DNA of 64,000 nucleotides, from NCBI GenBank assembly GCA_001771535.1, contig MEUB01000036.1, forward strand, positions 842 to 64,841, read 5' to 3'. Under the pieces are notes generated by a model that did no database searches, was not told the DNA's origin, and saw nothing but the letters and a program-made list of their open reading frames with translations. Position numbers and translations under genes: made by a program. Shown here piece after piece: positions 41,655 to 57,230 of the stretch (the first letter of the stretch is position 1; every line of letters starts with the position of its first letter). This DNA is from a candidate division WOR-1 bacterium RIFOXYB2_FULL_37_13 (lineage in GTDB: Bacteria > Margulisbacteria > WOR-1 > XYC2-FULL-46-14 > XYC2-FULL-37-10).

Positions 41655-42758
41655 TTATTTTGAAAGCGCTTCAATTATCTTATCTATGCGATGCCCGCAT
41701 GTATGGCGCGAAAGGACTTTCTTTTGAGCGGCAGATGATATAGTTTGCCTTTCTTTATCGTGTTCCATATAAAAAGCTATCTTTTCTTTTAAATCCTGAG
41801 GTCCTGAAAAAGTAACAATCTCTTTTCCAATCTCAAATAAATCACCAAGATCAGGCCTTAAGTCATCAACCAATTGAAAAGCCCCCAAGCCTCCAAGGAT
41901 AAAAGTCCTGTCATTGGGTGATTTAGCCATAATTTTGTTATTATTGCGATCCATATTGTGGCTAAAGCTGTCACGATGTATATTAAGATTTATTTTTGAT
42001 GCCAATTGATACTTTACGCTTTCTTCATAAGGAACAAACTCTTCTTTTATAAAGCTTTTCAACGTTTCATAATTGCTTAAAGCCCCCTGCCAAGAATCAG
42101 AAAGAACATGCGACCCCAGAAGCTTAACTTTATAGTTTTTTAAAAAACCAGAAAGCTCATCAATTACTTTAACCCTGTAAGAATTTTTAAACGGTGTGCC
42201 GACAAAACAAATATCGCTTTCATAGCTTTTTTCTTTTTGAAAGTTCTCAAATTTTGAAGGAAACGCCAATGGCAAAAAGAAAACATTTTTACACCCATTT
42301 TCCTGATATATAGGAACTGCAGCAGAATCAACCGTAAAAATAAACTCACAAATAGGAGCCATCTCCACGCTCAAATCAGTCCAATATGGGTCGTCAATCT
42401 GCCACATAACCATTTTTCTGCCCAAATCTTTTATTATTTTCAAAACAACCCTGTTTAAATGATGCCCATTCATAAAAAATATAAAATTAGACTTTGAAGA
42501 ATATATCTTTTGAGGGATAAGGGCAGAAGCATATTCTCTTGCAATTTTTATTAACTGATTTAAAGGAGTATCCTTAAATGAGGATTGTAAAAGCTGCCTA
42601 AAAACCAGAGTCTGTTTTGCAAAATCAAAAACTTCAACTTTAATCCCTTTCTCCAAAAAGGCAGCATAAATTACTTCATCCCAAAACTTTTCAACAGGGG
42701 TAATGCCATGCTTTATATAAAAAATTTCCATTTGTGGAGATTCTATCATAAGAATCAA
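41655..42758 (-). CDS. CgeB-like / Glyco_trans_1_2 family glycosyltransferase
   Basis: C-terminal region (HTCGHRIDKIIEAL) typical of CgeB/DUF3880-associated GT; last gene of the minus-strand cluster. Confidence 0.6.
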   Translation of the reverse strand: MILMIESPQMEIFYIKHGITPVEKFWDEVIYAAFLEKGIKVEVFDFAKQTLVFRQLLQSSFKDTPLNQLIKIAREYASALIPQKIYSSKSNFIFFMNGHHLNRVVLKIIKDLGRKMVMWQIDDPYWTDLSVEMAPICEFIFTVDSAAVPIYQENGCKNVFFLPLAFPSKFENFQKEKSYESDICFVGTPFKNSYRVKVIDELSGFLKNYKVKLLGSHVLSDSWQGALSNYETLKSFIKEEFVPYEESVKYQLASKINLNIHRDSFSHNMDRNNNKIMAKSPNDRTFILGGLGAFQLVDDLRPDLGDLFEIGKEIVTFSGPQDLKEKIAFYMEHDKERQTISSAAQKKVLSRHTCGHRIDKIIEALSK

Positions 42759-43181
42759 TTAAACAACAACACCATTTCCTGATGTATCAGGATTAATCAA
42801 TTGACTGCGCATTTGTTTTGCCTTTGATGAAATATTTTCCAACGCGATTAACATTTTATCTATTTCTTTTTTAACAGCGGGATCCGACGAATCCTGTTTT
42901 ATTGTTCGAAGGACACAAATCGCATCTTCTAAATTATTTCCATCCTTAGAACCAGTTAAAAGAGCAACAGCATTTCTTATTTTTTTAGCAATTTCCTTTA
43001 ATTTTTGCTGATTTTCCAGTTTTGCTTCCCCTGTTTCTTTTAAAATCTGAGCCAAAATTTCGTGAAGATCGCGCAATATTTTATTTACCGCCTCGTTGGG
43101 GTCGTTTTTTTCAAAGGCAACCGCAATGTTATTAAGTGACGAAGGATTTATCATTTTACTCATCTCCCTTTGTAATCTCAA
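42759..43181 (-). CDS. Hypothetical helical protein (140 aa)
   Basis: ORF abutting the next gene (stop/start adjacent). Confidence 0.5.
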   Translation of the reverse strand: MRLQREMSKMINPSSLNNIAVAFEKNDPNEAVNKILRDLHEILAQILKETGEAKLENQQKLKEIAKKIRNAVALLTGSKDGNNLEDAICVLRTIKQDSSDPAVKKEIDKMLIALENISSKAKQMRSQLINPDTSGNGVVV

Positions 43182-43187
43182 ACATTA

Positions 43188-55680: not shown

Positions 55681-56037
55681 TCACACATTACTGTCAACTA
55701 CGGGATTATCCGCCGTAGGATTGCCGGCCATAGGGATAGAAAGGTCGCCGGATTCTTTTTCTTCTCTTTCAACTTTAACACGTGATTCATGCGCGCCAAA
55801 TAAAAATTCCGCCACAAGATCAAGAAGGCTTTTAGTCGCGGTCGCATGCATTTTAAATTCCAAGGTATCTATTTCTGCTCCTTCAGGAGTATACCTGTTA
55901 GTCACAGAAGTTTGTAACGGCTCATCAACAAGTTTCCGTTTAGCAGCCTTAATTTCACCGGCAAGGTCAGGCTCATATTTAATTGCTTTACTATTTCCAC
56001 TCTTCGGATTCATTGATATCGGCGATGTATAAGCCAT
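55681..56037 (-). CDS. Hypothetical protein (118 aa)
   Basis: ORF. Confidence 0.45.
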   Translation of the reverse strand: MAYTSPISMNPKSGNSKAIKYEPDLAGEIKAAKRKLVDEPLQTSVTNRYTPEGAEIDTLEFKMHATATKSLLDLVAEFLFGAHESRVKVEREEKESGDLSIPMAGNPTADNPVVDSNV

Positions 56038-56060
56038 TTCCCTTCACGCTCCTTTTTTCC

Positions 56061-57230
56061 CTAACTTCCTCCGCTAACAGGAACCGGAATATCCGCAGCA
56101 TATTTATTAAGTGTATCAATCACCCACTCTGTTCCTTGTTTTTCATAATTTTCAAATATCAGATCGGTAACATATTTCCCTTCAGGGGTTACTGTCTTTG
56201 CGTCAAAGTTAATCGCATCAATCCGTTCTGCAAGACTTTTCTCTTTTGCCCATTTTCTAAACCGTTCAAGATTCTTTTGATACCCTAACAATTGATCAAT
56301 ATCTCTTTTTAAGCTCTTGTAATCTTTCATGTAATCTTTATTCTGGTAATAACTCTGTAAAATAGGAGCAAAACGGTCTACGGCCCATTTATCGGCAAGC
56401 ATAAGTTTGTTTATTGTAGGATAACCAAATTTTTTGCCCGCGTCTTCAATAAACGAATTCGTAAGACCCATGGTAAACAATTTCCAGCCTTCAGAATTTA
56501 ACTTGTCAAAGCTTTGAGCAGGTTCGTCACTGCCAACAACAGAAGCAACAGCCGCATAGTGAAAAGCATTACTAACTGCGGTATTTCCCAAATCAGCATT
56601 GCTCCAACCCATTTCTTTTACTTTTGATGTCATAGTCCTTGCAGAAATAATTACAAGATATTTGGTTTCCGCAAGCTGCTTAAATGACCGCTCTCCTGTT
56701 AAATCCATTGAACTCAAAGTATCTTTCAAGATTATAAGAAGTTCATTTCTGTCCTTGATATTCCCTTTCCCAAGAGTAATATCATCCCAGAATTTTTTTG
56801 TAGTTTGAACCCCCAGCAATTTATCAAATTCTTTCTGATTCATGCCATCCGTTTTAAATGCCAAATCAAGAGAGGCAGAAACATTTGCTTCCTGAAATTT
56901 TTTATCAGGTCTTATCTGTCCAAGGAATGAATAAATTTGATGATCGAGAGTTGTAGGTATCGGGATATCTCCACTTGCTGCCGCGTCAACTCCACTTTGG
57001 GGAGTAACTATTCCTGGCGCTATATTTCCGCTGGCAGAAGAAGAGGTTCCGGTCGGTTCTATTTCGCCCGCAGAAGAAGTCGCTGAAGTTGACGGCAAAT
57101 AAGAAGAAAGAACCGAAGTATCAGTTCCCAATTCAACTCCGGGCATATTTCTGCCGCACCCGTCCACTACAAGATTTACATTTCTTGTCGGTTGTTTTGG
57201 CGCACTGGTTACAGGAATAAAAAGAGCCAA
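56061..57230 (-). CDS. Hypothetical protein (389 aa), first gene of the minus-strand cluster
   Basis: ORF; S/T/G-rich N-terminal ~100 aa then a helical domain. Confidence 0.6.
   Translation of the reverse strand: MALFIPVTSAPKQPTRNVNLVVDGCGRNMPGVELGTDTSVLSSYLPSTSATSSAGEIEPTGTSSSASGNIAPGIVTPQSGVDAAASGDIPIPTTLDHQIYSFLGQIRPDKKFQEANVSASLDLAFKTDGMNQKEFDKLLGVQTTKKFWDDITLGKGNIKDRNELLIILKDTLSSMDLTGERSFKQLAETKYLVIISARTMTSKVKEMGWSNADLGNTAVSNAFHYAAVASVVGSDEPAQSFDKLNSEGWKLFTMGLTNSFIEDAGKKFGYPTINKLMLADKWAVDRFAPILQSYYQNKDYMKDYKSLKRDIDQLLGYQKNLERFRKWAKEKSLAERIDAINFDAKTVTPEGKYVTDLIFENYEKQGTEWVIDTLNKYAADIPVPVSGGS

Follow-up and report, generated by a model that had tools for sequence, protein, structure and literature searches.

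Within a 64,000-nucleotide (nt) window (the whole stretch of DNA analysed) from contig MEUB01000036.1 of RIFOXYB2_FULL_37_13, a bacterium of candidate division WOR-1 and a free-living groundwater member of the Saganbacteria (WOR-1), we examined a gene cluster that runs unbroken on the minus strand from position 57230 to 41655. The open reading frame (ORF) list of the window places 16 genes in this run, with products of, in order, 389, 118, 72, 1523, 97, 85, 102, 107, 759, 183, 129, 368, 61, 539, 140 and 367 amino acids (aa); products other than glycosyltransferases are named here by their length (g389 and so on). Neighbouring genes overlap by 4 nt at 46473-46476, share base 50785, abut at 46086/46087 and 42758/42759, and are separated by a 6-nt gap at 43181/43188, with wider gaps of 83-101 nt before g1523, g759 and g102. 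The ORF list agrees on the same-strand run and these junctions with an original prediction made from the sequence alone; it also bears out the genes inventoried there, except that a 61-aa ORF at 44820-45005 had been missed. The features of the locus are listed below, with labels such as L005 denoting related loci in other genomes and metagenomes.

57231 to 57377, intergenic: divergent region between the cluster and udg, with the Shine-Dalgarno sequence AAGGAGG 7 nt ahead of the TTG start at 57230
56061 to 57230, minus strand: g389, 389 aa, with a Ser/Thr-rich N-terminal tract at residues 31-77; orthologues 45% and 23% identical
55681 to 56037, minus strand: g118, 118 aa, acidic and fast-evolving; 34% identical to its L005 orthologue
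55440 to 55658, minus strand: g72, single-pass membrane protein of 72 aa; orthologues 60-62% identical, relatives in L014 and L019
50785 to 55356, minus strand: g1523, giant acidic protein; no family match, periodic pattern shared with its orthologues
50492 to 50785, minus strand: g97, 97 aa, basic; family extends to Margulisbacteria loci
50187 to 50444, minus strand: g85, 85 aa, Ser/Thr-rich (24% Ser plus Thr) and fast-evolving; orthologue 35% identical
49837 to 50145, minus strand: g102, 102 aa, very acidic, isoelectric point (pI) 4.05, helix, beta turn, helix; distant paralogue of g107
49412 to 49735, minus strand: g107, 107 aa, best-conserved small subunit; present in most loci, PDB profile search negative
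47109 to 49388, minus strand: g759, 759 aa; seven close homologues, family of 455-1370 aa
46473 to 47024, minus strand: g183, 183 aa, helical; 4-nt overlap with g129
46087 to 46476, minus strand: g129, 129 aa, basic and helical, pI 9.1; among the best-conserved members, 57-66% identity
44980 to 46086, minus strand: GT2-TPR protein glycosyltransferase, GmaR-like; Pfam Glycos_transf_2 (4e-23) plus TPR
44820 to 45005, minus strand: g61, 61 aa, basic; conserved in four related loci, a 57-59-aa gene being called in relatives
43188 to 44807, minus strand: g539, 539 aa, all-helical; widest-reaching family and marker for the module (AlphaFold2, profile search)
42759 to 43181, minus strand: g140, 140 aa, basic, helical and fast-evolving; orthologues 28-33% identical
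41655 to 42758, minus strand: CgeB-like glycosyltransferase, Glyco_trans_1_2 and DUF3880 (Pfam, 7.3e-27 and 9.4e-12)
40425 to 41642, plus strand: GT4 glycosyltransferase (Pfam), convergent with the run; 49.5% identical to the L005 copy

Pfam confirmed the predicted GT2-TPR enzyme inside the run and the CgeB-like enzyme at its end. The GT4 enzyme that the prediction had placed at the distal end is real and conserved beside the cluster, but its gene lies outside the predicted span. The 13 non-enzyme products for which no family had been recognised gave no match in Pfam, NCBIfam or PHROGs, and nothing below E = 0.005 was found in PHROGs for any cluster product. Pfam matches were equally absent from 95 orthologues covering all families and from 48 distant g539 relatives, and PDB profile searches with the g102/g107, g759 and g539 alignments were negative. 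Judged from their sequences, the 13 products appear to be new, truly unassignable and unlike anything described, and literature searches found no publication describing this cluster.

The gene order of the cluster, whose conservation the prediction had proposed to check, is found again in about 60 loci of other genomes and metagenomes, where the proteins are 20-66% identical, an arrangement far beyond chance. Scans of reference genomes and metagenomes yielded 23 and 58 loci, and a g539 profile retrieved 261 representative clusters among 1.84 billion proteins. The recurrent core consists of a giant protein, two to four proteins of ~100 aa, a g759-like protein, g183 with g129, often the GT2-TPR enzyme and the 61-aa gene, g539, and a variable helical protein; in L014, L018-L020 and L041 the core of g107, g759, g183/g129 and g539 is kept without a GT2-TPR gene. 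The few homologues of g759 sit in loci of the same gene order, and g389 is confined to close relatives. All named loci come from Saganbacteria, Margulisbacteria or Marinamargulisbacteria, with the exception of one bin labelled Omnitrophota. This locus (L015, DATJPS010000030.1, Candidatus Omnitrophota) carries GT2-TPR, g539 and CgeB-like genes and may reflect a binning error or transfer. Relative to L005, cluster proteins are 28-66% identical, as opposed to 68-82% for the flanking housekeeping proteins, and the cluster thus evolves faster than its surroundings.

Several properties of the products bear on where they may act. A Sec-type signal peptide was found in no product, and hydrophobic segments occur only in g72 and g1523. 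Cysteine makes up 0.16% of residues in the 14 non-glycosyltransferase products (the 13 and g61) as compared with 0.96% in 30 other proteins of the window (Fisher p = 4.5e-9), and this depletion also holds across the orthologues. The N-termini of the cluster proteins (residues 2-25) are enriched in Ser, Thr, Asn, Gln and Pro (0.375 vs 0.25, p = 2e-4) and depleted in Leu (p = 7e-4); known type III signals are polar and Leu-poor in the same way. Ser/Thr-rich tracts are found in g389, g1523 and g85.

The giant protein g1523 carries an S/T-rich tract at residues 69-150 followed by repeats, which the prediction had described as hairpins. The repeats are real, but they form four modules of ~200-230 aa, each consisting of a conserved helical core (..NIRxxLxxLxEAxxEMRNLVHxEMTGVxGRE..; residues 468-530, 695-757, 925-987 and 1125-1187) and, ~35 residues further on, a hydrophobic segment of 23-48 residues (563-610, 785-813, 1015-1037 and 1211-1236). 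A different arrangement of giant genes was observed in L008, where two stand in tandem (1-3842 and 4208-8857, encoding 1734+ and 1549 aa). The small protein g72 has an N-terminal transmembrane helix (hydrophobic residues 3-29) and a charged C-terminal helix. The ~105-aa proteins g102 and g107 are paralogues, as indicated by the recovery of g102-family members with the g107 profile at 5.6e-5 to 2e-3, by hhalign (35%) and by their joint alignment; g107 is marked by a D(P/T)T..T.xIG turn and a LLLxDRL C-terminal helix. All-against-all hhalign comparison revealed no other paralogous pair within the cluster.

The g759 protein is composed of a conserved N-terminal peptide, a variable middle rich in Trp, Tyr, Gly, Asp and Asn, a conserved core (ESRRRI...DPHN...QHS) and, at the C-terminus, a long basic helix. 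The polylysine tail attributed to it in the prediction is instead a mixed Lys/Arg/Glu helix terminating in QKKKNK. A deeper profile search with g759 returned the same seven proteins and nothing further, and its AlphaFold2 model was unusable (predicted local distance difference test, pLDDT, 40). The AlphaFold2 model of g539 is all helix with a C-terminal domain at ~pLDDT 80, and gave no informative fold or sequence match in structure and profile comparisons. The genes for g183 and g129 are fused into one in L016 (7925-8914), L026 (7196-7945), L029 (6995-7720), L031 (8668-9606) and L093-L096; since this fusion is seen in several lineages, the two proteins probably act together, a hint that they may form one functional unit.

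The enzyme embedded in the run provides a first link to flagella. In a phmmer search of the PDB, the closest solved relative of the GT2-TPR protein was GmaR (22ao_A; 7.3e-34 over residues 3-195, with about half of the aligned residues identical), followed by SunS-type peptide glycosyltransferases. The GT2 domain is followed by TPR repeats (Pfam TPR_2, TPR_19 and related models, residues ~174-347). GmaR is both the flagellin glycosyltransferase and the anti-repressor of MogR in Listeria (PMC9638930, PMC3150276). No flagellin or MogR gene was found in the window, although a MogR-type partner was not specifically searched for.

Further enzyme genes accompany the module in related genomes. CgeB-like orthologues adjoin it in L005, L016, L025, L038 and L065, and GT4 genes lie beside it in L005, L007 and L008. 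A trio of HisF-like, HisH-like and ROK-kinase genes recurs next to the module in L007 (19448-21668), L008 (19880-22037), L011, L017, L020, L023 and L025, and nucleotidyl-transferase and methyltransferase genes are likewise found beside it in relatives. Genes of the HisF-like, HisH-like, ROK and nucleotidyl-transferase type occur in flagellin glycosylation loci, and by analogy the trio could make a modified sugar, e.g., an acetamidino sugar. PEPCK and other housekeeping genes are recurrent neighbours of the module as well, showing that plain inherited synteny exists here.

Further links come from the gene neighbourhoods of relatives. A distant branch of the module (L093-L096) encodes, as recognised with hidden Markov models, a g759-like protein, the fused g183 and g129, GT2 and a g539-like protein, together with a g107-like protein in one locus. 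Directly downstream of the g539 homologue, on the same strand and 12-102 nt away, all four of these loci have a gene of ~295 aa belonging to the rod/hook family, whose profile matches E. coli FlgG at 1.8e-25 and FlgE at 3e-18 and whose C-terminus reads ESSNV..QRGY; weak or faint Pfam matches to LlgE_F_G_D1 or Flg_bbr_C were seen in three of them. A fifth locus of the branch, L097, lacks the FlgG-like neighbour (4/5). In five loci of the Marinamargulisbacteria type, the g539 homologue stands tail-to-tail with a flagellar operon ending in flhB. The complete flgD-flgE-fliL-fliN-fliO-fliP-fliQ-fliR-flhB run is present in two of the five and shorter stretches in the rest, and FlhB divergence among these loci spans 1e-231 to 1e-142. 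In L099, the g539 homologue adjoins cheA, cheY-like genes and a sigma factor. Two other observations on these distant loci concern neighbouring proteins: giants of 4000-5000 aa adjoin the module in L093 (13215-21782), L094 (14293-21770) and L096 (20066-21809), and in L030 two paralogous proteins of 228 and 312 aa (4202-4888 and 4910-5848, both minus strand), both beginning MT(I/V)TIDVTKLA, are encoded just upstream of the Marinamargulisbacteria g539 homologue.

Published gene content places the cluster in a genome with a partial flagellar set. Supplementary Data 2 of a comparative study (PMC6349859) covers this genome (code RX8B) and other Saganbacteria, scoring as present FlhA, FlhB, FliH, FliI, FliJ, FliO/P/Q/R, FliN, FliF, FliE, FlgB, FlgC, FlgG, FlgH, FlgI, FlgA and FlgE, and as absent FliG, FliM, FliK, FlgK, FlgL, FliD, FlgM, FlgN, FliL, FliW, FlgJ, FlhF, FlhG, CheC and CheD; CheR is absent in RX8B and present in two other Saganbacteria. 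The Riflemargulisbacteria in the same table do have the genes scored absent in Saganbacteria, and the Melainabacteria columns AS1A, AS2A, LO5A, LO5B and HO7A show a similar, still more reduced flagellar set (PMC6349859). The text of that study does not discuss the partial set. In this Saganbacteria genome, a basal body, rod and hook appear to be encoded without recognisable distal parts or switch. With export gate, rod and hook scored present and FlgK, FlgL and FliD absent, the distal parts of the apparatus are left unaccounted for. A survey of annotated flagellins lists Margulisbacteria and not WOR-1 (PMC7018530), a weak sign that WOR-1 has no flagellin.

With moderate confidence, we interpret the cluster as a distal or late module, specific to this lineage, of a flagellar-type type III system, comprising exported parts, their helpers and glycosylation enzymes. 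The layout, conservation, lack of known families, similarity to GmaR, flagellar neighbourhoods in relatives and composition biases are the observations from which we infer export, the glycosylation of the cluster's own proteins and the part that each would play. The Saganbacteria/Margulisbacteria-specific module would serve a type III export apparatus of the flagellar type whose genes lie elsewhere in the genome. Of the module's leaderless, helical products, which are poor in cysteine, most may be export substrates or distal parts atop the rod and hook, the candidates being the paralogous g102 and g107 together with g85, g118, g389, g539 and g759, while the small basic helical g129 with g183, g140, g97 and g61 could assist them in the cytoplasm as partners or chaperones. 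Two products, the giant g1523 and g72, would be embedded in the membrane. O-glycosylation of the Ser/Thr-rich tracts would be carried out in the cytoplasm prior to export by the GmaR-like GT2-TPR enzyme together with the CgeB-like and GT4 enzymes, as GmaR does with flagellin.

The interpretation departs in part from the original prediction, which had proposed a novel surface or secretion system. Most likely it is connected to the cell surface or to export, but a self-contained system is improbable and a flagellar link is preferred, since the cluster itself encodes no export machinery and its relatives have flagellar neighbours. Type III secretion, which had been dismissed, is brought back by the FlgG/FlgE, fliL-flhB and cheA/cheY neighbours of relatives, the GmaR-like enzyme and the published gene content, all of which tie the cluster to a flagellar-type apparatus. 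Rather than as a "new secretion system", the cluster is better described as a new accessory or distal module, Pfam-dark, that belongs to a type III system of the flagellar type.

A number of observations weigh against this interpretation. The neighbourhood links all come from related lineages and may represent few independent events; in Saganbacteria loci the module has no flagellar gene closer than 10 kb, and none was found in the 64-kb window. Consensus searches detected no sigma-28-type promoter at a conserved position in the window or in 24 loci. Comparisons of the cluster with E. coli FlgK/L/M/N and FliC/D/S/T/K/J (family profiles, hhalign) remained below 8 bits and 2% probability, as did those with E. 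coli FlgE, and none of the 13 products, 95 orthologues and 48 distant g539 relatives had a Pfam match to flagellar axial, flagellin, cap, junction, ruler or chaperone families. The axial-protein motifs Flg_bb_rod/Flagellin_N and Flg_bbr_C/Flagellin_C occur in no cluster product, and searches with Pfam, NCBIfam and profiles against E. coli proteins gave no likeness to FliS, FliT, FlgN, FlgM or FliJ. The candidate chaperones g129, g140 and g97 are basic (pI ~9), in contrast to the acidic chaperones known from type III systems. At 1523 aa and with several membrane segments, g1523 would be an awkward export substrate, and cysteine poverty is typical of coiled-coil proteins generally. The gene-content evidence is second-hand, being taken from KEGG orthologue calls, and because the table has no entry for FliC or FliS in any of the 46 genomes (PMC6349859), it does not establish that flagellin is absent from Saganbacteria.

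A bolder version of the same idea, which we regard as doubtful, is that a Saganbacteria basal body without FliG/FliM and FlgK/FlgL/FliD has turned into a non-rotary type III organelle, the cluster being its whole outer part. In such an organelle, g102 and g107 might polymerise on the hook into a needle- or filament-like fibre, junction, tip or ruler might be supplied by g539 and g759, and g1523 might insert into a target or outer membrane, all glycosylated by the GmaR-like enzyme. If this were true, it would be a second, independent injectisome-like or adhesive machine derived from the flagellum, in the sister phylum of Cyanobacteria.

An association with the flagellum could also exist without export. 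The products could form a cytoplasmic or inner-membrane scaffold that replaces FliG, FliM, FlhF, FlhG and FliL and is anchored by g1523 and g72, which we consider unlikely. Exactly these cytoplasmic and membrane parts are missing from Saganbacteria in the published table; g1523 and g72 are membrane proteins and the remaining products have no signal peptide, several members are basic and helical, g759 bears its long basic tail, and the flagellar neighbourhoods fit a scaffold equally well as export. Yet the embedded enzyme resembles GmaR, whose target is exported, and the cysteine depletion, polar N-termini and fast-evolving small acidic proteins suggest export; moreover, Marinamargulisbacteria have FliL and FliN and nevertheless retain the g539 homologue. 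It is quite unlikely that the cluster has nothing to do with flagella and is a system of its own for the envelope, the cytoskeleton or membrane shaping, with protein glycosylation regulating or decorating it and the flagellar neighbours being coincidental. The Saganbacteria module without nearby flagellar genes, the lack of homology to any flagellar protein and the exception of L097 would all be expected of such a system, and the recurrence of housekeeping genes such as PEPCK likewise speaks for it by showing that neighbours here can recur through plain inherited synteny. However, neighbouring motility genes in three branches (FlgG/FlgE-family in 4/5, fliL-flhB in five loci, and cheA/cheY in L099) are hard to attribute to chance, and a flagellin-type glycosyltransferase is embedded in the run.

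The presence of three glycosyltransferases, and of ROK, HisF-like, HisH-like, nucleotidyl-transferase and methyltransferase genes adjoining the modules of relatives, could also point to an island devoted to glycosylating flagellin or a surface polymer, in which the unassigned ORFs would be unrecognised sugar-pathway or carrier proteins. This explanation appears very improbable given that these products are helical, charged and repeat-rich without enzyme-like domains, and that the core persists without GT2-TPR in L014, L018-L020 and L041. A known flagellar glycosylation island, which the prediction had named as an outcome that would speak against novelty, accounts for the enzyme genes only; the structural proteins have no known counterpart. 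Four consecutive helical proteins of ~100 aa and weak PHROG tail matches (E = 0.005-0.03) might be taken to indicate a mobile element, prophage remnant, toxin/effector island or type VII-like WXG100 cluster, a possibility that we find scarcely credible. The cluster has a GC content like that of its surroundings, no tRNA gene occurs in the window, and the run is devoid of integrase, terminase, capsid and ATPase genes, in line with the earlier statement that it is not a prophage. No match to WXG100, FtsK or EssC was obtained and the g97, g85, g102 and g107 alignments contain no WxG turn, and the module holds a stable, conserved chromosomal position with vertical inheritance across the phylum. 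The identities considered and dropped were a prophage or tailocin, a type VII/WXG100 system, a glycocin (SunS-type) peptide cluster, a spore-coat-like assembly, a magnetosome or gas-vesicle-like organelle, and a serine-rich adhesin with accessory Sec.

If the link between the cluster and a flagellar-type apparatus holds, a structure exported by type III secretion, in a phylum that neighbours Cyanobacteria and has been little studied, would gain about a dozen families without known relatives as candidate parts. The published gap, i.e., gate, rod, hook and rings without known junction, cap or switch, would be explained, and GmaR-type protein glycosylation would be extended to new substrates. The cluster would also offer a test case for the remodelling of the flagellum into other machines, of which the injectisome has been the main example so far.

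The layout of the run fits a single transcript, which is plausible, but there are the gaps of 83-101 nt before g1523, g759 and g102, and promoter-like and terminator-like sites occur at shuffle level. Promoter-like matches in the intergenic region at 57231-57377 are no better than chance. A sigma-28-like pattern (TAAA-N14-CCGATA) lies at 56390-56413 on the minus strand, inside the g389 coding region and ~350 nt upstream of g118; it is not kept in relatives, and the two matches in the window compared with 0.5 expected are not significant. The cluster has a GC content of 0.35-0.40, matching its flanks, and a protein identical to its 759-aa product occurs in candidate division WOR-1 (Saganbacteria) RIFOXYC2_FULL_37_10. 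Pfam identified UDG, a pseudouridine synthase, an RNase T-like exonuclease, Pta and PmbA on the upstream flank, confirming the udg and pta genes predicted just outside the run, and GltX and a CPSase-like gene downstream. The remainder of the window is an ordinary diderm chromosome, including LptF/G, with no Rfam match anywhere in the window. Elsewhere in it are three insertion sequence (IS)-type transposase genes, at 30002-30862 (minus strand; Pfam rve integrase core and HTH_21), 31341-31985 (plus strand; rve, seemingly truncated) and 32879-33739 (minus strand; as long as the first but without a Pfam match), which are connected only by short diverged direct repeats. Further large ORFs without a Pfam match lie at 13240-16443 (minus strand, 1067 aa), 22680-23900 (plus strand, 406 aa) and 23897-25951 (plus strand, 684 aa), the 1067-aa ORF adjoining an NHL-repeat beta-propeller gene.

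Among described systems, the cluster resembles flagellar late-gene and flagellin-glycosylation loci, e.g., the gmaR-flaA region of Listeria, in having a GmaR-like GT2-TPR enzyme among leaderless, cysteine-poor, helical proteins and small partners, with more glycosyltransferases and sugar-modification genes alongside. A further likeness is that relatives of the module have rod/hook, export-gate and chemotaxis neighbours; the cluster differs from such loci in containing no flagellin, FliD, FlgK/L, FliS, FlgM/N or other recognisable late protein, and its giant protein with multiple membrane segments and basic-tailed 759-aa protein have no counterpart in flagellar loci. In CgeB/Sps-type glycosylation of the Bacillus spore surface, as would be the case here, CgeB-like and GT2 enzymes would act on leaderless structural proteins in the cytoplasm. 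In contrast to that system, the cluster is accompanied by no sporulation genes, its host is a diderm with LptF/G, and its proteins show no similarity to coat or crust proteins.

The needle, tip, translocator and chaperone operons of injectisomes offer a working analogy for the ~100-aa helix-turn-helix proteins, larger helical proteins, hydrophobic-segment protein and small partners of the cluster, although nothing resembling SctF, SctA, SctE/B or their chaperones in sequence or profile was found in it. Like such operons, the cluster is encoded apart from the export machine, and the machine of this lineage seems to lack the rotary switch FliG/FliM. Unlike in injectisomes, rod, hook and L/P-ring genes of the flagellum are retained for the basal body here (PMC6349859). 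The candidate partners are basic rather than acidic, and nothing points to a host-cell target. Buchnera has a reduced flagellar system that is kept as an export machine. Saganbacteria resemble it in that gate, rod and hook are kept, with filament, cap, junction and motor-switch genes missing. They differ in being free-living in groundwater and in having a large conserved set of new proteins accompanying the reduced system, which suggests replacement rather than plain loss.

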